Below are positions 3,089 through 46,657 of a stretch of DNA of 64,000 bases, one piece after another. The notes beneath the pieces are model-generated. The model was not told where the DNA came from, did no database searches, and was given only the letters and a program-made list of their open reading frames with translations. A program made the translations under genes and the position numbers. The DNA lies in NCBI GenBank assembly GCA_963728995.1, contig CAVSMD010000001.1, positions 244,358 through 308,357 of the forward strand. Direction: 5' to 3'. Source of the DNA: an uncultured Gammaproteobacteria bacterium. Lineage in GTDB: Bacteria > Pseudomonadota > Gammaproteobacteria > Steroidobacterales > Rariloculaceae. How positions within the stretch are numbered: position 1 is the first letter of the stretch; the number at the start of each line of letters is the position of its first letter.

Positions 3089-5520
3089 ATGAGCGGCTGC
3101 TTCCACTGTGGCGAGCCGGTCCCTGCGGGCACCGATTTCTCGTTGCTCGTCCGCGGCGCTCGGCGGGCCGTGTGCTGCCCCGGCTGCCTCGCGGTCGCGA
3201 CGCTGATCGAGCACCAGGGGCTCGGGCGCTTCTACGACTTTCGCAGCGCACCGAGCGCGCGGCCGAGCGAGCGCGGCACCGCAAGCCCCTGGAGCGTATG
3301 CGATCGACCCGAGGTGGCCGCGCGGCTCGCGCCGGCGGTGGGGCCGGATCGCCACGAGCTGCGCTGCCAGGTCGACGGCGTGACCTGCGCGGCGTGCGTC
3401 TGGCTGCTCGAGCGCGGCGTCCGCGGGCTCGACGGCGTGGCCGACGTCAGCGTCAATCCGCTGTCGGGCGAGACGGCCGTGCAGTTCGATCCCGCCCGTG
3501 CTCGCTTGAGCACGATACTCGACACGATCGCGAGCTTCGGCTTCGAGCCGCGCCCGGCCGCGCTCGGCCGACGGCGCGCCGAGACTTCACGCGCGGAGCT
3601 GAAGAGGCTCGCCGTCGCCGGTCTCGGCGCGGCGCAGGTCATGACGTTCGCCGCCGCGCTGTACGTCGGCGCGTTCAAGCACATGGAGGGCCGTCTACAC
3701 GCAGTTCTTCGTGCTCGTGAGCATGGTCGATCGCCACGCCCGTCGTGCTGTATGCGGGCGCGCCGATCTTTCGCTCCGCGTGGCTCGACCTGCGGCGGCG
3801 GCGCCTCGGCATGGACGTGCCCGTGGCGCTCGCGATCGCCGTCGCGATGCTCGCGAGCCTGTGGAACGCGCTGCGCGGCCACGGTCCCGTGTACTTCGAT
3901 TCGGCGACGATGTTCCTGTTCTTCCTGTCGCTCGGCCGCTTCCTCGAGTCGCGCGCCCGCCACCGCGCCGGCGGCCTGTTCGCCGCGCTCGCGGATCTGC
4001 GACCGCTCTCGGCCACGCGCCGGCAGGGCGCCCACCTTGACGCGCGTCGGCACCGTGGAGCTCGTGCCCGGCGATCAGGTCGTAGTCGCGCCCGGCGAGA
4101 CGGTCCCGGCCGACGGCGAGCTCATGTCCGAGCAAGCCTCGTTCGACGAGTCGTTGCTGTCGGGCGAATCGCTCGGGCGGCTGCGCCGCCGCGGCGAGCC
4201 CGTGCTCGGCGGCAGCCTGAATGCCGGCCGGGCCCCGGCCGAGATTCGCGTGACGCACGTCGGCGCCGATAGCTACCTCGAGCGCGTCGGCGGCCTGTTG
4301 CATCGCGCCCTCGCCGATCGGCCCGAGTTTCTCCGGCTCGCGGATCGTTGGGCCACGGCGTTCGTCGGCGGCCTGCTGGCCATCACGATCGCGGCCGGCA
4401 GCTTCTGGCTCGCGATGGCGCCGGCGCGCGCGTTCGAGATCGTGCTGGCATTGCTCGTCGTGACGTGTCCGTGCGCGTTGTCGCTCGCGGCACCGACCGC
4501 GTTCGCCGTCGCGCTCGGACGCCTCGCACGCCGCGGGCTGCTGCTGCGCTCGGCACGCGTGCTCGAGCGGCTCGGCGACGTCACGCTGTGGATGTTCGAC
4601 AAGACCGGCACGCTGTCCGAGGGCCGGATCGTCATCGCAGCGGGTCGATGCGCTTGCGGGCGTGGACGCCGAGCGGTGCCTCGCGATCGCTGCCGCGCTC
4701 GAGGCCGGCAACGCGCATCCCGATCGCCCGCGCGCTGACGAGCGCTCGCCACGTCGCGCCGGCAGCAGGCCTCGAGTACCGGGCCGGCTGCGGGGTCACG
4801 GGCGTCGTCGCCGGCCGCCGCTACCGGCTCGGCTCGGCCCGGCACGTCGGTCGTCTCGTGGCCGACGCCGATCAGTGCATCTATCTCGCCGACGATCAAG
4901 CGCTGCTGGCGCGCATCGAGCTAGCCGACACGCTGCGGCCGCACGCACGCGAAGCGCTCGCGGCGCTGGCCGCCCGCGGCTACGAGCTTGCGCTCGTCAG
5001 CGGCGACGCGCCGGGCGCGGTGGCACGCGCCGCGCGGGCGCTCGAGCTCACGGAATGGCACGCGTCGCTGCGTCCGGAGGACAAGCTGGCGCTGCTGCGC
5101 GCGCGCCAGCAAGCGGGCGCCGTCGTCGCCGCGGTCGGCGACGGCATCAACGATGCGCCGCTGCTCGCGCTGGCCGACGTCTCGGTCGCGCTCGTCACGG
5201 GCAGTCAGCTCGCGCAGGCGAGCGCCGACGTGGTGTTCACGGGCCAGGATCTGCGCGTGCTCGCCCGGCTGCCGGAGTGGGCAGCCGCGACGCGCCGCAT
5301 CGTGCGCCAGAATCTCGTCTGGGCCGCCGTATACAACCTCGCGGCCGTGCCGCTCGCCGCATTCGGCGTGCTCGCGCCGTGGATGGCGGCGATCGGCATG
5401 TCGCTGTCCTCGCTCGTCGTGGTGGGCAATGCGCTGCGCCTGAATCGGTTGCTCGCCGACGCGGGCGCGGCGCCGGCTGCGGCGCCGGCGACCGCGTTCG
5501 CGGAGGAGCAGACCGCATGA
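3089..5520 (+). CDS. ccoI: heavy-metal (Cu) translocating P-type ATPase CcoI/FixI, disrupted as read
   Basis: N-terminal Cys pairs (CFHCGEP, CCPGC), HMA-like GVTCAACV, SGES, membrane CPC (VTCPCAL), DKTGTLS phosphorylation site and GDGINDAP hinge. The path uses ORFs 3089.., 3745.., the 3089 frame again, 4662.. and 4348..5520, with frame changes at ~3690, ~4030, ~4640 and ~4715. Confidence 0.9.
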
Positions 5521-5672
5521 GCATCCTGTTCGCGCTGATTCCGCTCGCGGTCATGCTGCTCGCGCTCGCCGTATGGGCGTTCTTCTGGGCCGTGCGCAGC
5601 GGCCAGTTCGACGATCTCGACACGCCGGCCGTGCGGATCCTGCTCGACGACGAGGAGACCCGCGATGCCTGA
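5517..5672 (+). CDS. ccoS: cbb3 oxidase maturation protein CcoS/FixS
   Basis: 51 aa. MSILFALIPLAVMLLALAVWAFFWAVRSGQFDDLD is the CcoS signature. The ATG overlaps the ccoI stop (ATGA). Confidence 0.85.
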   Translation: MSILFALIPLAVMLLALAVWAFFWAVRSGQFDDLDTPAVRILLDDEETRDA

Positions 5673-6362
5673 GCTCGACGCAGCCTTGCTGCTCGCGGCG
5701 TGGCTCACGGGCCTCGCCGGCAGCGGCGGTCACTGTCTCGGCATGTGCGGCGGCATCGTCGGCGCGCTCGGCGTCCGGCAGCGGCCGGGGCTCGCCGGCT
5801 TCGGCATCCTCGTGGCGGCGCATCGTCGGTCGGGTCGCGAGCTACTCGCTCGCCGGCGCCGTCGCGGGATGGCTCGGCGCCGCTGCGATCACGACCCTGT
5901 TCGGCGACGAACGGCATGGTCGTGCTGCGCGTGGCGGCCGCCGTGCTGATCGTGGCGATCGGCCTGCAGCTGCTGCTCGGCCGCGCCCTGCTCGCGCCGC
6001 TCGAGCGCGCGGGCGCGCTCCTGTGGCGCCGGCTCTCACCGCTGCTGCGGCCGCTGCTGCCGCCGCGCGATCCGCTGCGCGCGCTCGCCGTCGGCGCGCT
6101 GTGGGGCTGGCTGCCGTGCGGGCTCGTCTACGCGCAGCTGTCCGTGGCTGCCACCGCCGGCGGCGCGCTGTCCGGCGCGCTCGTGATGGCGCTGTTCGGC
6201 CTCGGCACGTCCGTCGGGCTCACGGTGCTCAGCGCCGTGCTGCAATCGCTGGGACTCGCGCGGCTGCCGCGCCAGGCCGCCGGCGTGTTGCTGGTGCTGT
6301 TCGGCGTGGCGATGGTGCTGCCGTTCCTGGGCGCTAGCCCGCACGCACACCTGATGCCCTAG
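5665..6362 (+). CDS. TauE/SafE- or DsbD_2-like integral membrane protein, disrupted as read
   Basis: GGHCLGMCGGI motif and multiple hydrophobic helices. Its position directly after ccoS is typical of this family. Frames change at ~5825 and ~5915 (ORF 5665.., the 5573 frame, then ORF 5700..6362). Confidence 0.7.
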
Positions 6363-6366
6363 CGCG

Positions 6367-7959
6367 CTACTGCGCGCGCTTTCGATCGAGCGCCTTCAGC
6401 AGGACCGCTTCCGCGCCCGGGAACTCGCGTGACGCGTTCGCGAGGAACACGCCGCGCGACATCATCAGCGGCGTCCAGCCGAGTGCATTCCTGGCCGCCG
6501 GGTCCGCGCCGTGGTCGATCAGGTACTGCGTGATCGACGGCTGGTTCGAGATGATCGAGCCGTGCAACGCCGTGCAGCCGCTCCAGCGCGGATCTCCGAC
6601 GCCGAGATCGAGCAGCTCGTCGATGTTGTGCGGGTAGTACAGCAACGTGTAGGCCGGATCGCCGTCCATGCGGTAGTTGCCGAAGTTCGCATGGGCATTG
6701 ACGTCGTTGCCGAGCGCGAGCGCGAGCTGCACGGCTTCGAGACGCTCGGCCTCGCTGACGCCATTGTGCGGCCCGGGCGTTTCGCCCTCCCAGTAGTCGA
6801 GCCCTGCCGCGACCATCAGCGGCGTGATGCCGTACGCGTTCGGCAGCTTCGGATCGGCGCCGCCGTCGGCCAGTATCCGCATCAACGGCGCATCGCCGTT
6901 CTTGGCCGCCACGTAGAACGCCGTGGCGCCCACGTACGTCAGCAGATGCCGACCGAGCACGAGGCCGGGCGGATTGCGCGCCGTGCCGCCCTCCTTCGCG
7001 AACCGGTACTCGTGCCAGTCGATGCGCACGTTCGGGTTGGCACCGTGCGCGAGCAGCTGATGCGCGAGCTCGAGGCTCGTCACCCCACCGACCGGCAGCG
7101 GCGGCGCGTCGGCCTCGGCGCCGACGGCCGCCTGGCCCGTGGCCCCGGGCTTGCGCAGCCAGGCGAGCGTATGCAACGGCGAGCCGCGCACGTCGGGCAG
7201 GTTCGGGTCGGCGCCGTGCGCGAGCAGCACGCTCGCCACCTCGTAGTACGCATTGACCACGGCGAGGTTCAGCGCACTGGTGCCGTCGGGGCCGACCGCA
7301 TTGGCATCGGCGCCGAGCTCGAGCAGCGCGCGCAGCGTGTCGAGCTGCGCTTCGCGCACGGCAAACAGCAACGCGGTGAATCCGCTGTTCGATTTCGCCT
7401 CGAGCGCGGCCCCGTGCGCCGCGAGCAGCCGCACGGCCTCGGTATTGCCTTCGCCGGCCGCCCACATCAGCGCCGTCTGCCCCCGAAAGGGCTCCGTGAG
7501 ATTCACGTCGGCACCCTTGGCGAGCAGCAGCGCCACCGCGTCCGGCTCGCCATTGCGCGCCGCCAGCATCAGCGCCGTTTGCCCTTCGCCCGATAGCTCG
7601 TTCGGCGGCGCGCCGTGCGCGAGCAGCTGCTCGATCAGCGCGGCACTGCCGTTTTCGGCCGCCAGTGCGAGCGGCGTGACGTTGTTGCGATTCGCGGCGC
7701 CGGCGCGGGCGCCGGCCGCCAGCAACGCCTCGGCGAGCGCGTCGTCGCCAAACCGCACGGCCCAGAGCAGCGCGGTGGAGCCATCGGCGGCCGCGGCATC
7801 CACGTCGGCGTCCTCGGCGAGCAAGGCCCTGACCCCGGCGGCGTCCCGATCCCGCGCGGCGATCACGATCGCCGGGTCGGCCGCGAGCGCGACGAGCGGG
7901 CTCGACAGCAGCGCGGCCAACGCTGCGACTCGCGCGTGAACGGCGCCTCTTGTTCCCAT
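6367..7959 (-). CDS. secreted ankyrin-repeat protein (copy 1)
   Basis: Start placed at MGTRGAVHARVAALAALLSSPLVALA (signal peptide) inside ORF 6367..8145. It has at least 8 ankyrin-type repeats (G.TAL..A...G....V..LL..GA..N) and a ~200 aa non-repeat C-terminal region. Confidence 0.85.
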   Translation of the reverse strand: MGTRGAVHARVAALAALLSSPLVALAADPAIVIAARDRDAAGVRALLAEDADVDAAAADGSTALLWAVRFGDDALAEALLAAGARAGAANRNNVTPLALAAENGSAALIEQLLAHGAPPNELSGEGQTALMLAARNGEPDAVALLLAKGADVNLTEPFRGQTALMWAAGEGNTEAVRLLAAHGAALEAKSNSGFTALLFAVREAQLDTLRALLELGADANAVGPDGTSALNLAVVNAYYEVASVLLAHGADPNLPDVRGSPLHTLAWLRKPGATGQAAVGAEADAPPLPVGGVTSLELAHQLLAHGANPNVRIDWHEYRFAKEGGTARNPPGLVLGRHLLTYVGATAFYVAAKNGDAPLMRILADGGADPKLPNAYGITPLMVAAGLDYWEGETPGPHNGVSEAERLEAVQLALALGNDVNAHANFGNYRMDGDPAYTLLYYPHNIDELLDLGVGDPRWSGCTALHGSIISNQPSITQYLIDHGADPAARNALGWTPLMMSRGVFLANASREFPGAEAVLLKALDRKRAQ

Positions 7960-8023
7960 CCGTGATTCCTGCGGTCGGTGCGTCCGCAATATACAATGTC
8001 GAGCGTTCCCCGGGGGACTCGAG

Positions 8024-10428
8024 TTGGGACCACGCACGATTTCGTCCTTTGGCATCGCCGCGGCCGCCGCCCTGCTCGGCGCCGCGTGGCTCGGGCTGCG
8101 CGACCACGACCCCGCGGACCGCGCATTGACGGCGAAGACGCTCACCCGCTACTGCCGCGACTGCCACGACGAGCTGTCCCAGTCGGGCGACGTCGTGCTC
8201 GACCCGGCCGCGCTGGCGGACATCGGCGGGCATGCGGAGCTCTGGGAGAAGGTCGTGCGGAAGCTGCGCGCGCGGAACATGCCGCCGGCCGGCAACCCGC
8301 GGCCGGGCGTCGGCACCTACGACCACATTGCGACGTTTCTGGAGACGGCGCTCGATCGAGCCGCCGCGGTCGCGCCGAATCCCGGCACGCTGCCGCAGCT
8401 GCATCGCCTGACGCGCACCGAGTACCGCGACACCATCCGGGACCTGCTCGCGCTCGACGACCTGCCCGCGGAAATGGACTACCGAGCTACTGCTGCCGGC
8501 CGACAATGCGAGCAGCGGTTTCGACAATATCGCCGACCTCTTGTTCGTGTCGCCCGCGATCATGGAGCGCTATCTCGAAGCGGCGCGCAAGTTGAGCCGG
8601 CTCGCCGTCGGCGATGCCGACATGCCGGTCATGGTCAACATCCACCGGCTGCCGTTGCAGCAGCCGCAGGACGAAGAGGTCGAAGGCCTGCCGCTCGGTA
8701 CGCGCGGCGGCCTGCTCACCGATAGCTACTTCCCGCTCGATGCCGAGTACGTCGTGCGCGTGGAGCTCGAGCGTCGGCCGCGCGAGCGGCACGAGCTTGC
8801 GATCAGCGTCGACGGCGCGCGTGTGGCCGACACTCTGATCGGCGTGCGCGACGACGCCGGCCGCGCGCAGGGCACGTTCGAGTTTCGTGTGCCCGTCGAC
8901 GCCGGCCCCCATCGCGTCGGCGCGACGTTCGTCGCGCGCACGGCCGCGCTCGACGAGCGCATCGTGCGCCAGCTCAGGCGCAGCCGCGGCACGCTGCCGG
9001 CCATCGAGGCCGTGACGATCAGCGGCCCCTACTCGCCGACCGGCCCCGGCCGCACGCCGAGCCGCGAGCGTCTGTTCAGCTGTCATCCGACGGCGACCGC
9101 GGAGGAGACGCCCTGCGCACGCGAGATCCTGACGACGCTCGCCCGGCGCGCGTATCGGCGGCCGGTCACGAAGACGGACGTCGACGAGCTGTGGCCGTTC
9201 TACGAGGCGGGCCTTGCGCAGCGCGGCTTCGAGCGCGGCATTCAGCGCGCGCTCGAGCGCGTGCTCGTGAGCCCGCAGTTCTTGTACCGCATCGAGCGCG
9301 TGCCGCCGGGCACGACGCGCGGGCAAGCCGTTCGAGATCTCGCCCGTCGAGCTCGCTTCGCGGCTGTCGTACTTCCTCTGGAGCAGCATGCCGGACGACG
9401 AGCTGCTCGGGGCCGCCGAGAACGGAACGTTGAGCGACCAGAACGTGCTGTCGCGCGAGATCGGCCGGCTGCTCGCCGATCCGCGCTCGGACGCGCTGGT
9501 CGACAACTTCGCCGCGCAATGGCTGTTCCTGCGCGACGTGGAGCATCGCGATCCGGATCTGTTCCTGTTCCGCGACTACGACGAGAACCTGCGCCGAGCG
9601 TTCGTCACCGAGACCGAGCTGTTCGTCGGGAGCGTGTTCCGCGAGCCGCGCAGCGTGCTCGATCTCATCACGGCGAACTACACGTTCGTCAACGAGCGGC
9701 TCGCGCAGCACTATGGCATTCCGCACATCCGCGGCAGCTACTTCCGCCGCGTCGAGCTGCCCGCGAAGGGTCCACGCGGCGGGCTGCTCGGTCAGGGCAG
9801 CATCCTGAGGCTCACGTCGTACCCGACGCGGACGTCGCCGGTCCTGCGCGGCAAGTTCGTGCTCGACAATCTGCTCGCCTCTCCGCCGCCGCCGCCGCCG
9901 GCGGACGTGCCGGCGCTGGTGGCGCCGACGGCCGAGGAAGGCGAAACGCTGACCATGCGCGCCGCCATGGCCGCGCATCGCGCCAATCCGCAGTGCGCGG
10001 CGTGCCACGCGCAGCTCGATCCGATCGGCTTTGCGCTCGAGCAGTTCGATGCCGTCGGCCGCTGGCGCGACGAGGACGGGGGCCAGCCCATCGAGACCGC
10101 GAGCGAGCTGCCCGACGGCACCAGGATCGACGGGATCGCGGGCGTGAAAGCCATGCTCGTCGACGATCCGGAGCGGTTCGTGACGGCCCTGACCGAAAAG
10201 CTGCTGATGTATGCCCTGGGCCGCAACATCCAATACTATGATTTGCCGGCCGTGCGGCGCATCGTGCGGTACGCGGCCGCGCGGCAGTACACGTTCAGAT
10301 CCATCGTGGAAGGTATCGTGACCAGCGTGCCGTTCCGGCAGCGCTGGCTGCCGCCGGCGAAGCCGCCGCGCGGCACCACCGTCGCCGCGCTGGAAACGAC
10401 CGCGGCACCGTCGACGGAGAGCCAGTGA
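8024..10428 (+). CDS. DUF1592/DUF1585/DUF1587/DUF1588/DUF1595-type multi-domain haem-c protein (copy 1), disrupted as read
   Basis: N-terminal anchor, CxxCH (YCRDCH), MPPAGNPRP motif, SRLSYFLWSS motif and a C-terminal CAACHAQLDPIGF. Frame changes at ~8480 and ~9330 join ORFs 8024.., 8541.. and 9388..10428. Family assignment is from remembered signatures. Confidence 0.85.
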
Positions 10429-11768
10429 TGTTCGTGACGAAGAAAGCCCTGACGCGTCGCGCCTTGCTGCGCGGCGCCGGCGCCACGTTGGCGCTGCCAC
10501 TGCTCGATGCGATGGTGCCCGCGTTCGGCGCCGACGCACTACGCCCGACGCTGCGGCTCGCCTTCGTCTACGCCGGCAACGGCATCGTACACTCGTACTG
10601 GAAGCCAAAGGCGCCGGGACGCGACTTCGAGCTGACGCCAAACCTGGCTTCGCTGCGCAGCGTGCGCGACGACCTCAACGTGATCACGGGTCTCGCGCAT
10701 GCCCAGGCGGAAACGTTCGGCGACGGCACGGGCGATCATCCGCGCTCCTCGGCCGCCTGGCTCACGGGCGTTCATGCCTACGACCGCACGCGACCCGGCG
10801 TCGAGGTCAAGCTCGCGACGTCCGCGGATCAAATCGCCGCCAACGCCATCGGCCGGGACTCGCCCGTGGCGTCGCTCGAGCTCAGCGTCGACGCGCCGAT
10901 GCAAGGGGCGTGCGACGCCGGCGATTGCTTCTACGTGAACACCGTGTCGTGGCGCAACGAGACCACGCCGAATCTGGCCGAGCTGCACCCGCGGATCGTG
11001 TTCGAGCGCCTGTTCGGCGACGGCGGCTCGAGCCAGCAGCGGCTCGCGCGGGCCCACTCGGCCGTCAGCATATTGGACTCCGTCAAGGACGAAGCGGCGC
11101 GGCTCGCAGCCTCGCTCGGCGCCGGCGACAGCTCGAAGCTCGACGAGTACCTCGACTCGGTGCGCGAGGTGGAGCGGCGAATACAGGGGGTCGAGAACCG
11201 CGGCACGCGGGACGTTGCGCTGCCGGAACGCCCGACCGACATTCCGGAGACCTACGAGGAGCACGCGCGGCTCATGTTCGACCTGCTCAAGCTCGGCTTC
11301 CAGACCGATACGACGCGCGTCGGCAGCATGATCATGGCGCGCGAGCTCTCCGGCCTCTCGTATCCGAACATCGGCGTGCCGGAGTCGCACCATGCGATCT
11401 CGCATCATCGCGGTGATCCAGAGCTCATGGAGAAGAAGGCTCGAATCGATACCTACCACGTGCAGCTCATGGGCGAGTTTGCGGCAAAGATGAAGGCCAC
11501 GCCGGACGGCGACGGCAGCCTGCTCGACCACAGCCTGATCGTCTACGGCGGCGGCATGGGCGACGGTAACCTGCATCGGCATTCGGACCTACCGTGCCTG
11601 CTGCTCGGCCGGCTCGGCGGCACGCTGCGCACGGGCCAGCACGTGGTGTACCCCGATCGCACGCCGATGACGAATCTGCTGCTCACCGTGCTCGACAAGG
11701 TCGGCGTGCGCATGAGCCACTTCGGCGACAGCACGGGTCGGCTCGATCCGGACCTGCTCACGGTCTGA
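10428..11768 (+). CDS. DUF1552 domain protein with twin-arginine signal (copy 1)
   Basis: MFVTKKALTRRALLRGAGATLALPLLDAM is a Tat signal. The ORF is uninterrupted. ATG 10428 shares one nt with the upstream TGA (TGATG), and GGAGAG lies 7 nt upstream. The ORF track starts at GTG 10425. It is the obligate partner of the DUF1592 gene. Confidence 0.9.
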   Translation: MFVTKKALTRRALLRGAGATLALPLLDAMVPAFGADALRPTLRLAFVYAGNGIVHSYWKPKAPGRDFELTPNLASLRSVRDDLNVITGLAHAQAETFGDGTGDHPRSSAAWLTGVHAYDRTRPGVEVKLATSADQIAANAIGRDSPVASLELSVDAPMQGACDAGDCFYVNTVSWRNETTPNLAELHPRIVFERLFGDGGSSQQRLARAHSAVSILDSVKDEAARLAASLGAGDSSKLDEYLDSVREVERRIQGVENRGTRDVALPERPTDIPETYEEHARLMFDLLKLGFQTDTTRVGSMIMARELSGLSYPNIGVPESHHAISHHRGDPELMEKKARIDTYHVQLMGEFAAKMKATPDGDGSLLDHSLIVYGGGMGDGNLHRHSDLPCLLLGRLGGTLRTGQHVVYPDRTPMTNLLLTVLDKVGVRMSHFGDSTGRLDPDLLTV

Positions 11769-11922: not shown

Positions 11923-12471
11923 ATGAACGCTGATACGATCCTGCGTCGTTCGCTGTTGCTCGTGGCCCTGCTCGGCGCGCTGCAGACCGCAGTGGCGGAC
12001 GATTCCGCGACCAGGCCAACGGCCTGCCTGCGCAGGGAGGACATCCGCAGCACCAAGGTCATCGACGACCGTAACATCGTGTTCACTACGCGCGACCGAC
12101 AGACCTACAACAATCAGCTCGGGCGGCATTGCCCCGGCATGCGCCGTTCGACGCCGCTCAGCTTTACCTATGCCGATCACGGGCTGTGCATGGGCAGCAC
12201 GTTTTCCGTGCTGATGCGCGTCGGCTCCGGCAACGCGATAGCGGTCAATGACCCCGCCAACAACGTGCACTACACGATACCGGGACCGAACTTCGTGCAG
12301 GGAGCCACCTGCCAGCTCGCGATGTTCGCCCCGATCAGCGAGGACGAGGTCAAAGCGCTGATGGCGGCCACCGATGTCGAACGCCATTCGCGCCGCCGCG
12401 GCAATCGGGATGCCGTCAAGACCGAAGCGGCGGAGTCCGGCCGCGCGGCGGAACCCGCCGGCACGAAATAG
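11923..12471 (+). CDS. hypothetical secreted protein
   Basis: ATG 11923 is preceded by AGGTGGGA. It has the signal peptide MNADTILRRSLLLVALLGALQTAVA and four Cys. It may be a DUF6491-like family member, but that is a weak recollection. Confidence 0.5.
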   Translation: MNADTILRRSLLLVALLGALQTAVADDSATRPTACLRREDIRSTKVIDDRNIVFTTRDRQTYNNQLGRHCPGMRRSTPLSFTYADHGLCMGSTFSVLMRVGSGNAIAVNDPANNVHYTIPGPNFVQGATCQLAMFAPISEDEVKALMAATDVERHSRRRGNRDAVKTEAAESGRAAEPAGTK

Positions 12472-12568: not shown

Positions 12569-15500
12569 CTAGAACGCCATCTTCACGCCGACGTACATGC
12601 GACGACCGAGGATGTCGTAGTAGTCCGCGCGCGTGACCTCGGCGTTGCCGTCGGCGGAAGTCGCCCCGACGACGTTCGGCTGCTCGTCGGTCAGGTTGTC
12701 GATACCCATGCGCAGGCTGACCTTGTCGTTGACCATGTAGCCCGCGAACAGGTTCAGCGACTGGTACGAGTCGACGCTGAAGACAGTCGTGTTGGGGTTA
12801 CGTGCGAACGACTCGTCCTTGATGCTCGGCAGGTACCGCCACTGCAGCCCGATGTTGGCCTTGCCGCCACCGAAGTTGTAGCCGAACGTGTTCGTCAGCT
12901 TGTACTTGAACTGGCCGCCGTCCTGCGTCTGCAGCGTGTCCTTCTCGTTGATGATCGGCGAGTCCGGCGTGTCCTGCGTATCGTAGTGATCGAGGAACGT
13001 CATCAGCGAGTTGATGAAGAACGAGCCCGACGCCTAAGTCCTTCGTCCAGTTCACGGCCACGTCGATACCCGTACGTCTTCAAGCTGCCCGTGTTGATGA
13101 ACGGCGCATCGACGGACGCGCGCTCGCCCGACACCGTGTTGCGGAGGATCAACGCACAGTACGGATTGCCGGTGTACGACAGCGTCGGGTTGCTCGTGCC
13201 GTTGGAGTTGAAGCACTGCTGATACGCGAACAGCGAGTTCAACGGCGCAATCGCGTCGGTGATCTCGACGTTGTAGTAGTCGAACGATGCCGTCAGGCCG
13301 TCGAGGCCGCCGGGACTCTGGAGCACGACCCCCAACGTGAACGTATCGCCCTTCTCGGGTTGCACCTTCGGGTTGCCCTGGCGCAGCTCGATCTCGAGCG
13401 GGAAGAACGGGTTGCCGGGCCGCGCGAAGCCGTTCGGACCGGCGGGGCCGATGTCGAACACCGACTGGTTGTCGTTCGTGGGGTCTGCGTCGCTGTTGTT
13501 GATGATCGCGCGGCACAGCGCCTGGACGGCCGCTCGATTCGGGTTATTGGCGGTATTACCCCACAGCTGCCCCGTGCTCACGTCGTTGTGATCGAACGTG
13601 TACGAGCAGGGATCGCTCGGCGCAAACGGCACGACGAGCAACGAGACTCCCTGGAACAGCTCGGCCGTGTTCGGCGCGCGCTCGGCGCGCTGGAAACCGC
13701 CACGCAGCGTAACGCTGTCCGTGGCGCGGAACGTGAACAACGCCTTCGACGTGTCCGTGGTGCCGATGTCCGAGTCCGCGTAGTCCGATTCGCGCAAGCC
13801 GAACTCCATGTCGAACTTCTTCGTGATGGGGACGAGCAACTCGCCGTAGATCTCGGACACCTTCGTTCCGCCGGCCGTGTTGTTCGACGCGAAGATGCTC
13901 ATCGGGTTCTCGACGACGGACTCGCGATCGTTCGTCTCGCCCGGATCGAACTTGAAGGTGTTCCTCCGGCTCGTGGCGCCGACCGCGAACCGCAGCTCGC
14001 CGTTCTTCATGTCGGTGATCTTGCCCTGCAGGTTGAACTCGCCGATATCCTGCTGCAGCTTCTGGACCGAGCGCGCCTTCGCCACGATGCTCTCGATGCA
14101 GTCGGACGACACCTGGCCCGCGCCGAGCGAGGAGCTGGTCGTGAAGATCGGCAGACCGCTCGTGCAGTTCTGGACGTAGTTGCGACCCGAGCTGAACGAG
14201 CCGGCGCCCCAGGTAGCGTTCTGCTGACTCAACAGGTACTGGTAGCGCTGCAACGACGGCAGGTTGTTGAAGAAGCTCAGCGAGTCCGTCTGGCCCGAGG
14301 ACACGTAGGCTTCCCAGGTCCAGTCGCGATTGCTGAACCGGCCCTCGACACCGGCCATGATCTGGAACACGTCGTTCGAGGTCTTGGTCGAGACCGGATC
14401 GCCCATGAAATCGAGCACGCGGAACAGCGTCCAGGGAGCGGTCGGATCCGGGCGCGAGGCGAGCAGCGTTTGCAGCGCGGCCGGAATGGGTCGGCCGTCG
14501 ACCGGGATCGGCGCGGACCAGACCGTGATGGCCGGCGAGAAACCCTGGGTGGTTTGCACTTCCACGCTGGCGTAATTCGCCTGCACGAACGCCGACAGAT
14601 TGTCGTTGATCTCGTGCGTGGCGCGACCGAACAGCGAGCGGCGGGTCAAGGGCGACGAGGCCTGGCCGACATAACTGACCTGGCCGAGATCGCCGTTCGG
14701 CTGCAGCCGCATGCCGGCATAGCCGGCGCCCGTCGGCGTCTGGCTCGACGGGCTGTCGAACGGGCCGTTGTAGCCGCGAGCCTTCGCTAGCAGGAACGGA
14801 CTGCCGTCGGGATTGAAATAGATCTCGGAACGCGGCGTGGCGATGAACCCGCCGGCCGGCATTCCCGTGGTGGAGCCACCCGGGTAGTAACCGGGCACGC
14901 TCGCGAAGACGGAGTCAACAGCCGTCTGGCTCGGCAGACCCCCGCTCGCGGTGCTGCTGCCGGCGCCTAGAATCGCCGTGGTCGGCGAGTAACCGGGCGG
15001 CTGGATGAATCCGCCGGCATTGCTGCCCGGATCGAACCAGCCATTCAGGTAGAAGTCGCGGTCCTTCAACAGGACCTCGCCGCGGTTGTACCACTCGACG
15101 CCGAGCATCACGTTGCTCTTGCCGTCGCCCGGAGTTCACGCCGAGCAAGCTCGTGAAGCGCGTCTCCTCGCCGTCGCCTTCCGCCGTCATGCCGGTCTGG
15201 AAGTCCATGTCGACGCCTTCGAAATCCTTCTTCAGGATGAAGTTCACGACACCGGCCATGGCGTCGGCGCCGTACACGGCCGAAGCGCCGCCCGTGATCG
15301 TCTCGACGCGCTCGATGGCGGCGGACGGAATGGTGTTGATGTCGATGATCAGCGCCGCGTTCGCCGGCTGCGCGCGGCGGCCGTCGATCAGCACCAGGGT
15401 GCGGTTCGGGCCGATGCCGCGCAGGTTCACGCTGCCGATACCGAGCGAGGCCGTCGGGCCTGCCTGAATGCCTTGGTCGAACTGCGTGCCCTCGGGCACG

Positions 15501-16089: not shown

Positions 16090-17649
16090 ATGCAATTTTT
16101 TCGCCGCACGCTGATTCTCCTGCACCGCTATCTCGGGATCCCGCTCAGCGCCGTGTTCGTGCTGTGGTTCGCGACGGGGATCGCGATGATCTACGTCGGC
16201 GGCATGCCGGCCCTCGCCCCGCAGGCGCGGCTCGAGCGTCTCCCGCCGCTCGACCTCGCCGCCGTCACGCTCACGCCGACCGACGCCGCCGCACGCGCCA
16301 TGAGCGGCTTCGGCGACGTTCGCCTCACGACGGTGCTCGATCGGCCTGCCTACCGCTTCGACAGCGCCTACGGCTCCGCGACGGTCTTCGCGGACGATGG
16401 GGCCGTGCTCGAGCCGGTCACCGTCGAGACGGCGAAGGACGTCGCCGCGAAGTTCCTCGGCGTCGAGCGGAACGACCTCGATCTGCTCGCGCTGATCGAC
16501 CGCCCCGACCAGTGGACACTGCTGCTCGGGCGCGATCTGCCGCTGTACAAGCTCGGCGTCCGCGACGGCGCCGGCACGCAGGTGTACGTGTCGCCGGACT
16601 CCGCCGAGGTGCGGCTGGTCACGACGCGGCGCAGCCGCGGGCTCGCATGGATCGCCACGATCCCGCACTGGTTCTACATCACGCCGCTGCGCGTCCATCA
16701 GCCGCAGTGGTACTGGACGGTGGTCGTTGCTGCCGCGCTGGGGTGTCTGCTGGCCGTGCTCGGGCTCCTCGTCGGCGTGCTGCAGCTGCGCTGGTCGAAG
16801 CCGTTTCGCTGGTCGAGCGCCATCCGCGCCCAGGGGTGGCTCCGCTGGCATCACCTCCTCGGTCTCGTGTTCGGGGTCTTCGCGCTGACATGGGTCTTCA
16901 GCGGCCTGCTGTCGATGGAGCCGTTCGCGTGGACGAATGCCGAGGGGTTGCAGGTGGGCGACGACGCCCTGTCCGGCGGGCCCGTCGAGCTCGATCGATT
17001 CCCGGCGTTCGACGCCGACCGCTGGCCGGCATTGCTCACCGGTCGCGCGCTGAAGGAGATCGAGTTCCGCCGTGTCGAGGACGAGCCTTACTACCTCGCC
17101 CGGTACACGAGCGCACCGGCCGAGCTCGACCCACACCGCGAGCGACTGCATCAGCCCTATCTCGTCACGGGTCGGGCAGCGCCGGAGCATGTGCTGATCG
17201 ATGCCACCACGCTGGCGGTGCACGCCGACGCGTTCGCGACGGAGTCCCTGCTGGCGCGCCTCTCGGCTGCGGCGGGCGATGCGCGGATCGTCGACCAAAC
17301 GCTGCTGAAGGACTACGACTCCTATTACTACTCGCGCGGCCGGCAAGCACCGTTGCCGGTGCTGCGCGTGAAGTTCGACGATCCTCTCCGCACCTGGATC
17401 TACGTCGACGTGGGGCTCGGTGAGATCGTCGCGACCATCCATCGCTTGAACCGCGTGGAGCGCTGGCTCTACAACGGCTTGCACAGCCTGGACTTCGGCT
17501 TCTGGTACGACCGTCGGCCGCTCTGGGACATCGGCATGATCACGCTGTGCGGCGGCGCGCTCGTGGCAAGCCTCATCGGCCTGTGGCTCGGCCTGAAGCG
17601 TCTGCGGTCCGACGTCGCACGGATCACGCGGCGGCGGGGTCCTGCTTGA
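16090..17649 (+). CDS. PepSY-associated TM helix protein (PiuB-like)
   Basis: MQFFRRTLILLHRYLGIPLSAVFVLWFATGI N-terminus. It also has repeated TM segments with WHHLLG and a RWLYNGLHSLDF C-terminal motif. The 519-aa ORF is uninterrupted. Confidence 0.85.
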   Translation: MQFFRRTLILLHRYLGIPLSAVFVLWFATGIAMIYVGGMPALAPQARLERLPPLDLAAVTLTPTDAAARAMSGFGDVRLTTVLDRPAYRFDSAYGSATVFADDGAVLEPVTVETAKDVAAKFLGVERNDLDLLALIDRPDQWTLLLGRDLPLYKLGVRDGAGTQVYVSPDSAEVRLVTTRRSRGLAWIATIPHWFYITPLRVHQPQWYWTVVVAAALGCLLAVLGLLVGVLQLRWSKPFRWSSAIRAQGWLRWHHLLGLVFGVFALTWVFSGLLSMEPFAWTNAEGLQVGDDALSGGPVELDRFPAFDADRWPALLTGRALKEIEFRRVEDEPYYLARYTSAPAELDPHRERLHQPYLVTGRAAPEHVLIDATTLAVHADAFATESLLARLSAAAGDARIVDQTLLKDYDSYYYSRGRQAPLPVLRVKFDDPLRTWIYVDVGLGEIVATIHRLNRVERWLYNGLHSLDFGFWYDRRPLWDIGMITLCGGALVASLIGLWLGLKRLRSDVARITRRRGPA

Positions 17650-18379
17650 AGAACTGCTTGAGCTGCGCGTAGACGTCGGGATATTCCTGCCGCAGGCGCT
17701 GCGGCACGTCGAAGAACAGCTCCGCGCACACGGCGAAGAGCTCGGCCGAATCCTCCACGGCATACGGGTCCAGCCACGGCTCCACGCCGCGCTCGAGCTG
17801 ATCGACGAGATCGTCGTACGCTGCGTCGAACGCGGCGACCCATTCCGGCACGCGCATGCCGGCGTGCAGCGGCGGCACGCCGTTGGCCTCACCGCTCAGC
17901 ATGTCGAGCTTGTGGGCGAGCTCGTGGATCACGACGTTGTAGCCTTCGCCGCGCCCGCTCAGCTCGACCTCGGTCCAGGCGAGCACCACGGGGCCCTGCT
18001 CGAACGCCTCGCCGCTCAACAGGTCGTCGCCGACATGGACGACGCCATCCTCGTCCTCGTACATGCGATCGCGGACCAGGAACTCATCCGGATGCACGAC
18101 GAGGGACAAGAACCCGGCATAGGCGTCTAGGCCCAGCTCGAGAATCGGCAGGCACGCGAAGGCGGCGATCCGCAGCCGTTTCGCGTCGTCGAGCACCAGG
18201 CCGCCGGCGGGCTCGAAATGCTTCTCGTGCAGGAACAGCACGGCGAGCTCGCGTAGCCGGCCCTGCTGCGCGGCATTGAGGCGCCCCAGCGCGGGCACGG
18301 ACGCGGCCAGCGTCGTCCAGAGGGCGTCGGGAATCGAGCGACGGGCCAGCACGCGCCGCCGGCGCCAACGCCTGAACAT
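17624..18379 (-). CDS. mtfA: zinc-dependent peptidase MtfA (M90 family)
   Basis: MFRRWRRRR N-terminus, HELAHKLD zinc motif and YAVEDSAELFAVCAELFF C-terminal motif. Its 3' end overlaps the convergent PepSY gene by 26 nt. Confidence 0.8.
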   Translation of the reverse strand: MFRRWRRRRVLARRSIPDALWTTLAASVPALGRLNAAQQGRLRELAVLFLHEKHFEPAGGLVLDDAKRLRIAAFACLPILELGLDAYAGFLSLVVHPDEFLVRDRMYEDEDGVVHVGDDLLSGEAFEQGPVVLAWTEVELSGRGEGYNVVIHELAHKLDMLSGEANGVPPLHAGMRVPEWVAAFDAAYDDLVDQLERGVEPWLDPYAVEDSAELFAVCAELFFDVPQRLRQEYPDVYAQLKQFFKQDPAAA

Positions 18380-19350: not shown

Positions 19351-19511
19351 GAGCCCTCCTCTCGTGGTGGTTACATCGGCCGCTTGAATGTAGCGCGCGC
19401 GCCGAGCGGGTTCTAGCGGGCCGATGAAAAAGGGCCTGCGGCGCCCGCCGCGCGGCTCGGCCTTTGGCTCCGCGCGGCCTATACTCGGGCGTCTCGTCAG
19501 GGGGAGCCCGC

Positions 19512-20564
19512 ATGCGCATCGCCGGCACAGTCCTGGTCTCGTTCACCGCCGCGCTCGTCGCGCCCGTCGTCGCGGCGCACCACAGCTTCGCGCCGCATTT
19601 CGACATCTCCAAGCCCGTGAGCATCTCCGGCACCGTCACGCAGTACGAGGCACGCAACCCCCACAGCTATCTGCACATCGCCGCCGTCGACGAAAACGGC
19701 AAGACGCAGGAATACGTGTGCGAATCACACGGCTACACGCAGCTCACGCGCAATGGCATCACACCGGAGATGCTGAAGCCCGGGACGAAGCTGCGGATCG
19801 ACGGCTCGATGTCGCGGCATAGCCAGTATCAGTGCTTCTTCAACAACCTCTATTTCCCGGACGGGCGCGCGCTGAACGTCAATGGGCCCACGGGCCCGCA
19901 GAGCGTCCGGGCGCCGGGCCCGACCTTGCCGGCGCGCCATGACCTCTACGGCACCTGGTTGCTCGCGCCGATCCTCAACCGCAGCACGAGCGGCCCGCAG
20001 CCGATGATCGAGGCCCTGACGCCGGCAGGACGGGCGGCCGTCGCGGCCTACGACCCGTTCAAGGACGACCCGACCTTCCGCTGCGATCCCGTCGCCATCC
20101 GCCGCGTGTGGGGCGCGCCGGGCACGCCGCTGTCGATCACGCGCGACGGCGATCGAGTCGTGCTCCGGCACGAGTGGATGGACGTGGAGCGCATCGTGCA
20201 CCTCGACCAGCGCGAGCACCCGCAGGACGGGCCCCGCAGCTCGCTCGGTCATTCGATCGGCCACTTCGAAGGCGACACGCTCGTGATCGACACCGGCAAC
20301 TACGCGGCCGGCGTGCTGAATCAGTACGTGGAGCAACCCGGTCAACCGACGCGTGGGCTGCTGCATTCGGCCGCGCTGACGTCCGTGGAGCGGCTGCACT
20401 TCGACGCGGCGCGGCAACGACTCGTCGTCGAGATCACGCTGCAGGACCCCGAGTTCTTCACGCGCGATTTCGAGCCGGCGCACTACGAGTACGCGCCGTC
20501 CGAACTGAAGCTCGAGCCGTTCAACTGCTCGCCCGAGGGCGTCGGCGGCACCCTCAGAAGATAA
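19512..20564 (+). CDS. secreted fusion protein: AHHS/NPH small-protein domain (DUF6152-like) + WEGDTLV-family domain
   Basis: ATG 19512 follows GGGGGAG. The signal ends VVAA|HHSFAPHFD and is followed by GTVTQYEARNPHSYLHI. The C-terminal half carries FRCDPVA, LDQREHP, GHFEGDTLVIDTGNY and FNCSPEG. Confidence 0.8.
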   Translation: MRIAGTVLVSFTAALVAPVVAAHHSFAPHFDISKPVSISGTVTQYEARNPHSYLHIAAVDENGKTQEYVCESHGYTQLTRNGITPEMLKPGTKLRIDGSMSRHSQYQCFFNNLYFPDGRALNVNGPTGPQSVRAPGPTLPARHDLYGTWLLAPILNRSTSGPQPMIEALTPAGRAAVAAYDPFKDDPTFRCDPVAIRRVWGAPGTPLSITRDGDRVVLRHEWMDVERIVHLDQREHPQDGPRSSLGHSIGHFEGDTLVIDTGNYAAGVLNQYVEQPGQPTRGLLHSAALTSVERLHFDAARQRLVVEITLQDPEFFTRDFEPAHYEYAPSELKLEPFNCSPEGVGGTLRR

Positions 20565-40189: not shown

Positions 40190-40219
40190 CGCGCTATCGA
40201 CCGAGCAGAGGTAATGCCC

Positions 40220-41568
40220 ATGTTCGTGACGAAGAAACATCTGTCGCGGCGCGCGATGCTCAAAGCCGGCGGCGTGGCCGTCGCACTGCCGCTGCTCGAC
40301 GCGATGATCCCGGCGGCCACGGCGCTCGCGCAGACGGCGGCTAAGCCTGCGCTGCGCGTGGGCTTCTTCTACATTCCGCACGGCGCGATCCTGTGGAACA
40401 CCGCGTTCGGCAAGGAGATGGACCACTGGACGCCCGAGCGGCGCGGGCGAGAGTTTCAAGCTCTCGCCCGATCATGGAGCCGCTCGAGAAATACAAGCGC
40501 TACGTCACGTCGTTCGGCAACCTCGAGAACAAGGCGAACCAGAACTCCGTGCACGCGATCGTGCCGGCCACGTGGCTCTCGGCCGTGCGGCCGGACCAGA
40601 GCTCACCCGGCGCGCACATGGCGGCCACGATCGACCAGCTCATCGCCGCGAAAATCGGCCAGGAGACGGCGCTGCCCTCGCTCGAGGTGGCGTCCGAGAC
40701 CACGACGCAGGTCGCCGCCTGCCCGTCCGGCGCCGGCTGCTACTACAGCACGACGCTGTCGTTTCGCAACGCCACGTCGCCGCTGCCGATGGAGTTCAAT
40801 CCGCGCAAGGTGTTCACGCAGCTGTTCGGCGAAGGCGACACGCCGGAAGAGCGCAACGCCATCGCCGCGCAGACGAAGAGCCTGCTCGACCTGATCAGCG
40901 ACCGCACGGCGGCGCTCAAGCTTACGCTCGGCGCCGGCGACCGCGTGGTGCTCGACGAGTATCTCGACACGGTCCGCGAGATCGAGCGGCGCGTCGCGAA
41001 GGCCGAGCAGCGCGATCTCTCCGGCATCACGCTGCCGGAGGCGCCGGTCGGCGAGCTCGATTCGTTCGACGCGCAGGTCAAGCTCATGTTCGACCTGATC
41101 GCACTCGCCTACCAGGCCAATCTCACGCGCGTCGCCTCGTACATCATGGTGGCCGAGGGCACGAACCGCACGTACAACCACATCGGCGTGTCCGACGCGT
41201 TCCATCCGCTGTCGCACCACGCCAACGACAAGGAGCGGCTGCTGAAGCTCGTGAAGATCCAGCGCTACCACATGGAGCGCTTCGCCGACTTCGTCGCGAA
41301 GCTCGCGGCCACGCCCGAGGGCGACGGCACGCTGCTCGATCACTCGATGCTGATGTACGGCTCGAACATGAGCAACAGCGACCGGCACAACAACTACCCG
41401 CTGCCGAACATCCTCGTCGGCGGCGGCGTCGGGCGACTGAAAGGCGGCCAGCACATCGACCTGCCCGAGCACACGACGCTCGCGAATCTGCACCTCACCG
41501 TGCTGAACAAGGCCGGCCTGGATCAGAAGAGCTTCGCCGACGCCTCGGGCGAGATCGCGGGCGTGTGA
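40220..41568 (+). CDS. DUF1552 domain protein with twin-arginine signal (copy 2), disrupted as read
   Basis: MFVTKKHLSRRAMLKAGGVAVALPLLDAM (AGAGG lies 8 nt upstream; the ORF track starts at ATG 40214). Two frame changes at ~40440 and ~40468. The rest is colinear with copy 1. Confidence 0.85.
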
Positions 41569-41575
41569 CGCGCGG

Positions 41576-42492: not shown

Positions 42493-42510
42493 CTCGTGAC
42501 GAGGCCACGC

Positions 42511-46551: not shown

Positions 46552-46657
46552 GAATTCGGCGTACTGATGCGGCTCGTTCGCTCCGCCCCTCCGAGCTGGC
46601 GCCGCCGACTCATTGATCCTACCATCGGCTTCAGTACCCTCGGGACGACGAGAACCC

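Follow-up and report, generated by a model that had tools for sequence, protein, structure and literature searches.

An exported ankyrin-repeat protein is linked to one subfamily of DUF1592/DUF1552 gene pairs in Gammaproteobacteria and Acidobacteriota

Pairs of adjacent genes encoding a large cytochrome-type protein with PSCyt3/PSD domains and a protein of the DUF1552 family came to notice first in Rhodopirellula baltica and afterwards in Verrucomicrobia. In a 64,000-nucleotide stretch of the genome of an uncultured gammaproteobacterium (contig CAVSMD010000001.1, positions 244,358–308,357; hereafter the window, 68% GC), one such pair stands back to back with a gene for an exported ankyrin-repeat protein. 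The original prediction for this locus took the repeated association of the three families in the window to suggest a functional three-component periplasmic system. Is the ankyrin protein a regular companion of the pair, or did the genes come to lie side by side by chance? We found that the ankyrin gene is a hallmark of one subfamily of DUF1592/DUF1552 pairs and not of the whole family, and that within this clade the three genes are linked by selection.

Linkage of the ankyrin gene to the DUF1592/DUF1552 pair

The ankyrin gene of the first module, Ank1 (6367–7959, minus strand), encodes 530 amino acids (aa) and matches Pfam Ank_2 with an E-value of 3.6e-55 over five stretches. About eight canonical repeats occupy aa 30–270; the repeats beyond them are non-canonical and bear conserved insertion loops. 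Read from the sequence, its N-terminus (MGTRGAVHARVAALAALLSSPLVALA, followed by AD) looks like a Sec signal peptide, in which a positive n-region precedes a hydrophobic core and an AxA site. Its start lies 64 bp from the TTG at 8024 that begins the DUF1592-type gene, DUF1592_1 (8024–10428, plus strand; ~800 aa), whose Pfam matches fall on three pieces of open reading frame (ORF). Next comes DUF1552_1 (10428–11768, plus strand; 446 aa, with a twin-arginine translocation (Tat) signal), which matches Pfam HXXSHH (PF07586) at 283.5 bits against a cutoff of 30 and covers model positions 1–305 of 307. Its start is probably the ATG at 10428, with a GTG at 10425 as the alternative. This ATG overlaps the stop codon of DUF1592_1 (TGATG). 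The corresponding genes of the second module overlap in the same way (TAATG), and since such overlap is the usual sign of translational coupling, the two genes of the pair appear to be translationally coupled. The same three families recur at 37743–44045, all on the plus strand. The gene content, the 64-bp divergent arrangement, the signals for export and the recurrence at 37.7–44.0 kb were all as the original prediction had described them.

To place this arrangement among its relatives, we took both the DUF1552 and the ankyrin protein as starting points. On the DUF1552 side, one genome per GTDB species was scanned, and 80 loci were returned with proteins 47–75% identical to DUF1552_1. Four came from gammaproteobacterial metagenome-assembled genomes (MAGs) and nearly all others from Acidobacteriota (Vicinamibacterales, Bryobacterales, Terriglobia and 'Acidiferrales'). 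The linkage census covered the window and 84 loci (L numbers below) with 98 DUF1552 genes, 85 of them assessable; in the other 13 cases a contig end lay too near to judge. A full-length Ank1-family gene was directly adjacent to 77 of the 85, standing divergently upstream of the DUF1592 gene in 33 and directly 3' of the DUF1552 gene on the same strand in 44. In five more cases an ankyrin gene lay within 4 kb in another arrangement: convergent (L015), upstream and co-directional (L059 and L071), 3.8 kb upstream (L017), or 2 kb downstream of DUF1552 on the opposite strand (L064). Two genes had no ankyrin neighbor (L029 and L032), and one had a partial ankyrin-like match only (L079).

The ankyrin side gave a consistent picture. 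Over 100 full-length orthologues share 63–89% identity with Ank1, and the few with a name are 'Gammaproteobacteria bacterium' MAGs; signal-peptide-like N-termini can be read throughout. Look-ups of independent loci found the full trio in six of eight (L001, L003, L004, L165, L168 and L005, the last of which also belongs to the DUF1552-side loci). The divergent order of the ankyrin gene and the DUF1592-DUF1552 pair was kept with differing flanks in L001, L003, L004, L165 and L168/L169. The 4.7-Mb contig of L001 holds a second module as well, with the ankyrin gene directly 3' of DUF1552.

The DUF1552 family as a whole is far larger, with 16,779 clusters at 50% identity (E ≤ 1e-3). We compared the related pairs with distant ones, using a metagenome scan seeded with a four-sequence alignment of distant representatives about 35% identical to DUF1552_1, which gave 80 loci. 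Ankyrin genes were found in six of these only (L117, L145, L153, L157, L159 and L163), all of which fall inside the ankyrin-linked clade. Among the 23 assessable distant loci (18 pairs and five DUF1552 genes that have no DUF1592 gene beside them), none had an ankyrin gene, and we found no conserved alternative third gene beside the ankyrin-negative pairs. The difference in adjacency, 77 of 85 against 0 of 23, gives a Fisher p of 4e-17, a nominal value because the loci are not phylogenetically independent. The association is nonetheless far beyond chance. The original prediction had regarded it as coincidental if the ankyrin gene were absent from other genomes with DUF1592/DUF1552 pairs; the gene is absent from the assessable distant loci and present beside nearly all of the related ones, so that it marks a subfamily only.

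Phylogenies of the pair draw the same boundary. In a neighbor-joining (NJ) tree of 173 DUF1552 proteins, the last common ancestor of the 80 ankyrin-linked tips spans 102 tips, none of them ankyrin-negative, and the 71 tips outside hold all 23 negatives and no positives. A strict division into ankyrin-positive and ankyrin-negative proteins was recovered in 0 of 100 bootstraps, since L029 and L032 are nested in the ankyrin clade. With these two set aside, the split was recovered in 44 of 60 NJ bootstraps for DUF1552 and in 37 of 60 for DUF1592 (62–73%). Both loci sit within a Vicinamibacterales clade of the divergent arrangement and are best read as secondary losses, judging from their placement in the tree.

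Could the adjacency be no more than inherited synteny, with the ankyrin protein serving some unrelated role? Shared ancestry inflates the counts, as much of the set stems from related lineages (Vicinamibacterales, Bryobacterales), and an orthologous ankyrin gene sometimes stands away from any pair (L002). We nevertheless consider this explanation very improbable. Adjacency has been kept in at least four gene orders: divergent upstream, downstream co-directional, downstream convergent (L015) and upstream co-directional (L059, L071 and L077). It spans two phyla with variable flanking genes, is confined to a single clade in the trees of both partners, and has persisted although the whole unit was duplicated time and again within genomes. 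That flanks vary and gene order shifts while adjacency stays points to selection on the linkage itself rather than to synteny passed down by descent.

Such duplications are evident in Vicinamibacterales, in which two or three pairs stand in tandem within ~20 kb (L039, L040, L047, L051, L055 and L081) and each assessable pair has its own ankyrin gene. One MAG of this order (contigs L028, L040 and L047) carries seven or more DUF1592/DUF1552 pairs, and an ankyrin gene accompanies at least six of these. From these numbers and the tandem arrays we conclude that the trio has undergone a family expansion as a unit. The three proteins have also diverged in step: over 54 trios, paralogues included, pairwise distances correlate at r = 0.90 between ankyrin and DUF1552, 0.90 between ankyrin and DUF1592, and 0.93 between DUF1552 and DUF1592. 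The gammaproteobacterial clade is nested among acidobacterial clades. The sequences thus indicate that the trio was duplicated as a block, and it was probably also transferred as one. The trio recurs in about 80 other loci of soil bacteria from two phyla, and the three genes almost certainly work together.

Export, predicted folds and possible roles of the three proteins

We wondered what the three products might do together, and where. All three appear to be exported, the ankyrin by a Sec-type signal, DUF1552 by Tat and DUF1592 by an anchor or Sec; together with the linkage, this supports the three-component periplasmic system that had been proposed, within the one clade in which the ankyrin occurs. 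The twin-arginine motif of DUF1552_1 reads TRRALLRG, and all 94 DUF1552 orthologues whose N-terminus is complete have a motif of the form RRx[FLIVMA][LIVMF]; of 78 family members, 20 also match the Pfam TAT_signal model. DUF1592_1 begins with a hydrophobic stretch of about 20 residues in which no cleavage site is clear, so the protein may be membrane-anchored. It carries two CxxCH motifs, CRDCH at 8153–8167 and CAACH at 9994–10008, as had been noted before. CxxCH motifs likewise point to export, since the attachment of c-type haem takes place outside the cytoplasm.

The number of such motifs is nearly constant: 72 of 74 full-length DUF1592 orthologues have exactly two, and the proteins are predicted to bind two c-type haems. 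In DUF1592_1 the Pfam domains follow one another as a PSCyt1/cbb3-like cytochrome, PSD3, PSD5, PSD4, PSCyt3 and PSD2. The last five (PSD3, DUF1587; PSD5, DUF1595; PSD4, DUF1592; PSCyt3, DUF1588; PSD2, DUF1585) are found in this order in both modules of the window, spread over frame-shifted pieces, and intact orthologues of 777–816 aa have the same domain set. We found no sequence relative of DUF1592 or of DUF1552 in the PDB and no NCBIfam or PADLOC model naming either family. PADLOC likewise returned no anti-phage defence match for these two proteins, and its ankyrin hits were to generic ankyrin models only.

For DUF1552_1, an AlphaFold2 (AF2) model built from a 78-sequence alignment reached a pLDDT of 86.7 and a pTM of 0.85. 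The top Foldseek matches in the PDB were S1 sulfatases (1p49, E = 8e-6; 9hh2, E = 6e-5; 9fo1; overall E-values 8e-6 to 5e-4, probability 1.0), followed by other enzymes of the alkaline-phosphatase superfamily. The model thus suggests an alkaline-phosphatase/sulfatase fold, as a remote match. Nine residues are invariant in the family (H105, D135, Q136, D218, D235, E250, H323, H327 and H384), and two of H323, H327 and H384 fall in the region of the HXXSHH motif, which reads HAISHH at 11391–11408; from these residues we infer a metal centre. In the model His105 caps helix 104–114 within GDH105-PRSSAAWLTG. When this segment is set against the sulfatase signature CxPxRxxxxTG, His105 apparently stands where sulfatases carry their formylglycine nucleophile. 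An invariant histidine in that place, together with the lack of a match to the Sulfatase Pfam family, indicates that only the fold is sulfatase-like and that DUF1552 is not a formylglycine sulfatase.

The AF2 model of Ank1 (pLDDT 84.6, pTM 0.83) shows an unbroken solenoid. Superposition matched it to 12-repeat segments of ankyrin-B and ankyrin-R, in 5y4f (0.80) and 1n11 (0.81; template modelling (TM) scores normalised to the target), and its predicted fold is most like such stretches of human ankyrins. Among orthologues of the divergent arrangement the C-terminal half is the most conserved, with the segments HTIAWLRKPGATG, GRHLLTYxGATAFYVAAKNGD, WEGETPGPHTG and GDPRW. Several conserved segments coincide with loops modelled at low confidence (273–282, 322–338 and 391–399), as would be expected of loops that become ordered upon binding a partner. 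The conserved loops as a whole span residues 263–292, 317–345, 386–402 and 452–466. Some of them are missing from ankyrins of the downstream type, which are shorter; what the two types share besides structural repeat positions is E156, GQTALMWA (160–167), H263, R361, D369-P370 and H466.

How might these proteins fit together? The DUF1592 haem protein and DUF1552 would pair up as a periplasmic haem-metalloenzyme, and the ankyrin would directly bind its own cognate pair as a dedicated subunit or adaptor, through its groove and through the flexible loops that are conserved in its C-terminal half. Each paralogous pair keeps a co-diverging ankyrin, which is the strongest argument for direct and specific binding, as one general chaperone would suffice per genome. 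TonB-dependent receptor genes near the trio, in the window and in L003, and a receptor family of the carboxypeptidase-regulatory type in 11 loci hint at the processing of an imported compound; such receptors are not universal. We consider it reasonably likely that the trio is such a conserved periplasmic module, a haem protein and DUF1552 pair bound by a cognate ankyrin, in which the contacts and the chemistry are what we infer. The confidence that we attach to each alternative was not constrained to sum to one with the others.

Several observations weigh against this reading. One locus (L166, 7608–11572) has an ankyrin gene divergent from DUF1592 and no DUF1552 in 21 kb; in another (L002, 10001–11599) an orthologous ankyrin with 68% identity stands alone, with neither partner nearby. 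Although placed within the ankyrin clade, L029 and L032 have no ankyrin, and L064 has DUF1552 and an ankyrin without DUF1592. Either DUF1592 or DUF1552 might be the partner that the ankyrin contacts: L166 keeps only the former and L064 only the latter. Support for the ankyrin clade is moderate by its bootstrap values, and the loci share ancestry. A comparison of 66 ankyrin-positive with 16 ankyrin-negative pairs, at thresholds of 90% and 10%, yielded no insertions or specificity-determining positions in DUF1592 or DUF1552 that are particular to the ankyrin clade, and consequently no docking site can be proposed. As for DUF1552, the sulfatase match is remote (TM ~0.4, 10–12% identity), none of the 78 family members matched the Pfam sulfatase, DUF1501 or other alkaline-phosphatase families at E ≤ 10, and the placement of His105 depends on motifs aligned by eye and on the secondary structure of the model.

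A different role for the ankyrin would be that of a transient, dedicated maturation factor, which loads a cofactor into its cognate partner or helps it fold and is not a stable subunit. There is precedent for bacterial ankyrins that are periplasmic or linked to haem proteins: AnkB is reportedly needed for full activity of the catalase KatB in Pseudomonas aeruginosa, and Cj1386 is said to be needed for full KatA activity in Campylobacter jejuni. The ankyrin gene is often a separate divergent unit outside the coupled DUF1592-DUF1552 operon, and in L029 and L032 the pair persists without an adjacent ankyrin gene, as a helper of this kind would allow. On general grounds, however, a periplasmic haem or metal chaperone would have no obvious step to act on: the covalent attachment of c-type haem goes through the Ccm/Sec route, and proteins exported by Tat take up their cofactors while still in the cytoplasm. 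A general helper would also need no cognate copy for each pair, and the tandem trios each keep a co-diverging ankyrin. No catalase gene stands next to any trio examined, and no catalase family was found in the annotated trio neighborhoods. A maturation factor therefore seems to us rather unlikely.

Less likely still, the ankyrin might act on the DUF1552 enzyme in the periplasm as a specific inhibitor or regulator, protecting the cell or gating the enzyme. One-to-one cognate pairing and co-divergence would agree with a tight and specific interaction, the flexible loops conserved in Ank1 could enter an active site, and the Bdellovibrio ankyrin protein Bd3460 is said to block a secreted endopeptidase. 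Yet we saw no sign of DUF1552 toxicity and no secretion-system or toxin genes in the neighborhoods examined, and with no ankyrin gene in the 23 distant loci, most of the family of 16,779 clusters probably works without such an inhibitor.

Returning to the ankyrin as a bound partner of the pair, a stronger version of the same idea can be put forward, although we think it less likely than not. The ankyrin would then be an obligate third subunit in a new class of periplasmic haem-metalloenzyme complexes, in which a histidine-metal enzyme of alkaline-phosphatase fold is wired to a di-haem cytochrome and its own ankyrin sets partner or substrate specificity. If this were true, the trios would form a modular set of tools with which abundant soil bacteria process nutrients, with a logic like that of polysaccharide-utilisation loci.

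Several known systems resemble the trio in part. Closest are the PSCyt3/PSD-DUF1552 pairs themselves, with the same domain architecture in the haem protein and the same adjacent Tat-exported DUF1552. Here a third, co-diverging exported ankyrin is added, which is absent from the 18 assessable distant pairs, and the hosts are Gammaproteobacteria and Acidobacteriota rather than the Planctomycetes-Verrucomicrobia-Chlamydiae (PVC) group. A second kind of pair, PSCyt2/PSD1 (DUF1549/DUF1553)-DUF1501, joins a large protein with c-type cytochrome domains to a Tat-exported protein of a sulfatase-like superfamily. The logic is analogous, and the Pfam families differ, with no DUF1501, DUF1549 or DUF1553 match here. 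S1 sulfatases give the best structural matches to the DUF1552 model and have a helix cap resembling, by eye, that of GDH105-PRSSAAWLTG; DUF1552 differs from them in having an invariant histidine in place of the formylglycine cysteine or serine, and in the extra H323, H327 and H384.

SorAB sulfite dehydrogenase also combines a Tat-exported catalytic subunit with a c-type cytochrome subunit that takes the Sec/Ccm route, the two genes being co-transcribed and coupled. Our trio appears to share this export logic; unlike such oxidoreductases, it has no molybdopterin or other known redox domain, an alkaline-phosphatase-like predicted fold, an ~800-aa cytochrome with five PSD/PSCyt domains, and an ankyrin in addition. 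With AnkB-KatB and Cj1386-KatA it has in common a genetic link between a bacterial ankyrin and a haem protein. In those systems the ankyrin is short and the partner a catalase, whereas Ank1 is modelled as a 12-repeat-like solenoid and its partners are a cytochrome and a putative metalloenzyme; sequence similarity is limited to generic ankyrin repeats. AnkB is periplasmic according to the title of Howell et al. 2000, as cited in PMC3534063.

PMC5615132 describes PSCyt3 genes as usually adjoining a family of unknown genes, mentions two such pair types and says that nothing is known of their function. The literature matching the DUF names, part of it as matching passages only, gave no sign of an ankyrin partner. 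The trio is thus apparently undescribed, the pair itself being the known and uncharacterised PSCyt3/PSD-DUF1552 pair. The wider PSCyt/PSD-DUF1552 family is very large and was earlier called 'Planctomycete-specific', and according to a 2017 study (PMC5615132) its function was still wholly unknown. The trio delimits within it a subfamily with an extra, co-evolving protein-binding partner, which offers a handle for pull-downs and structure prediction, and the predicted fold of DUF1552 would narrow the chemistry to test. The subfamily occurs in Acidobacteriota (Bryobacterales, Vicinamibacterales) and in soil Gammaproteobacteria, and cultured acidobacterial relatives may exist. It is also a clear case of free-living bacteria exporting a long ankyrin solenoid whose role is apparently housekeeping or metabolic; ankyrin proteins are enriched in host-associated bacteria, and those of free-living species average 4.6 repeats per protein, according to PMC3932732.

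Frameshifts in the module genes

The reading frames of the window present a puzzle that the original prediction had not raised: several genes of both modules are broken by changes of frame. DUF1592_1 is split over three frames by two +1 shifts, an extra C near 8466 (tac-C-gag) and an extra G near 9330 (gcc-G-ttc). When the intact DUF1592 of L003 is compared with the window by tblastn, it aligns as three collinear high-scoring segment pairs (HSPs) in frames 2, 3 and 1 with 60–79% identity, and switches of frame in third-codon-position GC (GC3) mark the same shifts. The second module has at least six, at ~39653–39721, ~40098–40140, 40447–40471, 41.7 kb, 42.0 kb and 43089–43104. Two fall in its DUF1592 gene, one in its DUF1552 gene (40447–40471), two in an accessory gene described below and one in its ankyrin gene (43089–43104). 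In the public record, Ank1 (P0001, identical) and DUF1552_1 (P0121, 446 aa, identical) are intact, and DUF1592_1 appears only as a 346-aa fragment, P0391, which indicates that the shifts sit in the deposited assembly.

Are both modules decaying pseudogenes, with real shifts, so that the system no longer functions in this genome? The two shifts in DUF1592_1 and the six or more in module 2 would fit decay, as would the public annotation of the former as a 346-aa piece. It also counts against our reading of the modules as working units that both inspected junctions, those in DUF1592_1, lie outside long homopolymers, so that real pseudogenisation is conceivable. Nevertheless, unrelated genes are broken in the same way: the Cu-ATPase gene (3089–5520) has at least four frameshifts, and the TonB-dependent receptor gene (12569–15111) is also split. 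Over 11.6 kb the module genes show at least eight single-base frame changes and no in-frame stop, with neither nonsense substitutions nor deletions. The third-position GC bias is strong in every segment, and the pieces of DUF1592_1 keep their identity to the intact orthologue. The same splitting of HSPs is seen in related contigs of long-read MAGs, for instance L019.

Many single-base shifts without nonsense codons, the retained GC3 bias and the involvement of unrelated genes together point to assembly error. We therefore regard errors in the assembly consensus as the highly likely source of the frameshifts, and gene decay as improbable; in the organism the module genes are probably intact. 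The pattern looks like the indel error of long-read MAG assembly. When proteins were searched with the C-terminal fragment of DUF1592, all those returned were truncated, at 300–600 aa.

The second module and neighboring genes

The second module begins with DUF1592_2 (37743–40214, plus strand), delimited by tblastn HSPs, which matches Pfam PSD3/PSD5/PSD4 and has its PSCyt3 match divided between two ORFs; the two CxxCH motifs read CMDCH (37875–37889) and CNGCH (39766–39780). The start of DUF1552_2 (40214–41568, plus strand, Tat signal) overlaps the stop of DUF1592_2 at 40214. The piece of DUF1552_2 downstream of the frameshift matches Pfam HXXSHH at E = 1e-68 (232.5 bits), with HPLSHH at 41203–41220, and in alignment the protein is 39% identical to DUF1552_1. 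The ankyrin gene, Ank2 (42496–44045, plus strand), lies downstream in the same orientation as the pair. It was found by tblastn with Ank1, with HSP boundaries set by the downstream-type ankyrin of L001, and both of its pieces match Pfam Ank families. Ank2 is an exported paralogue of Ank1, as read from its N-terminus (MTRPRMQRPLLAFLASVALFAGGVAGA, followed by AD), and is 30–44% identical to it over aa 52–498. By these identities the two modules are old paralogues that appear to have diverged anciently.

Between DUF1552_2 and Ank2 stands a fourth gene, which was not part of the original prediction. It encodes a SoxH-like protein of metallo-β-lactamase (MBL) fold with a Tat signal (41576–42492, plus strand) and matches Pfam Lactamase_B weakly in two pieces. 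Homologues are present in 13 related loci (L034 at 17128–18144, L036, L043, L046, L049, L050, L073 and others), often divergently upstream of DUF1592 in loci with the ankyrin gene downstream. The intact homologue in L034 scored 89 bits against a cutoff of 280 for TIGR04559, 'quinoprotein relay system zinc metallohydrolase 2', and 55.6 bits against a cutoff of 300 in the second score of the TIGR04559/TIGR04558 test. By these scores the gene is related to this SoxH-related family and does not qualify as a member; it may encode an optional fourth component.

The 64-bp region between Ank1 and DUF1592_1 (7960–8023) contains an AT-rich 12-mer, CAATATACAATG, at 7987–7998 on the plus strand. Among nine aligned gammaproteobacterial divergent intergenic regions, the motif CATTGTATATTG is exact in four (the window, L003, L165 and L006) and has two to six mismatches in the other five; in the window, at 68% GC, it has a single exact occurrence. 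From its sequence the AT-rich element may represent overlapping -10 boxes or an operator. A scan for consensus sigma-70 promoters over 6.2–12.6 kb, this region included, called none.

Directly 3' of DUF1552_1 lies a gene for a small exported protein (11923–12471, plus strand) that resembles DUF6491 (Pfam E = 3e-5, below the cutoff). A homologue occupies the same place in L003 (5369–5938; 33% identity over 143 aa) and a weaker match is found in L165 (5471–6178), so that conservation is limited to close relatives and the gene may be a lineage-specific accessory. Beyond it is the TonB-dependent receptor gene at 12569–15111. On the other side, module 1 stands just downstream of cbb3-oxidase genes (2–853 and 3089–5700 of the window), a context not common to other loci. 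The window's ccoP combines FixP_N with two cytochrome c domains, and a CcoI/FixI-like Cu-ATPase and a short CcoS-like ORF lie near the module, identified by eye from their translations.

In L004 (1–21587) and L168 (1–21593) the trio lies within what appears, by Pfam families, to be a nitric-oxide-reductase-type cluster. Its neighbors there include a cytochrome c/COX1 pair, a GntR regulator, an MBL protein, CCP_MauG (in L168 only), a CbbQ-type AAA protein, a 677-aa protein, NnrS and Rrf2. We considered denitrification as a general context for the trio and rejected it: the nor/nnrS/Rrf2-type setting belongs to these two loci, and the others have unrelated flanks.

Two minor observations concern other genes. 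The L026 contig (CAZGLC010000390.1, 3.3 kb) carries a typical DUF1592-DUF1552 pair of acidobacterial type under the label 'uncultured Bifidobacteriaceae bacterium' and is probably mis-binned. An exported family of about 360 aa, matched by neither Pfam nor NCBIfam, is found in 20 of the loci fetched, in several copies in some, and often stands beside DUF6152, for which the window has an ORF at 19428–20561. Members lie at 46613–47698 in the window, 13560–15119 in L001, 6629–7627 in L166 and 17425–19439 in L003, and with DUF6152 they look like a separate conserved pair.

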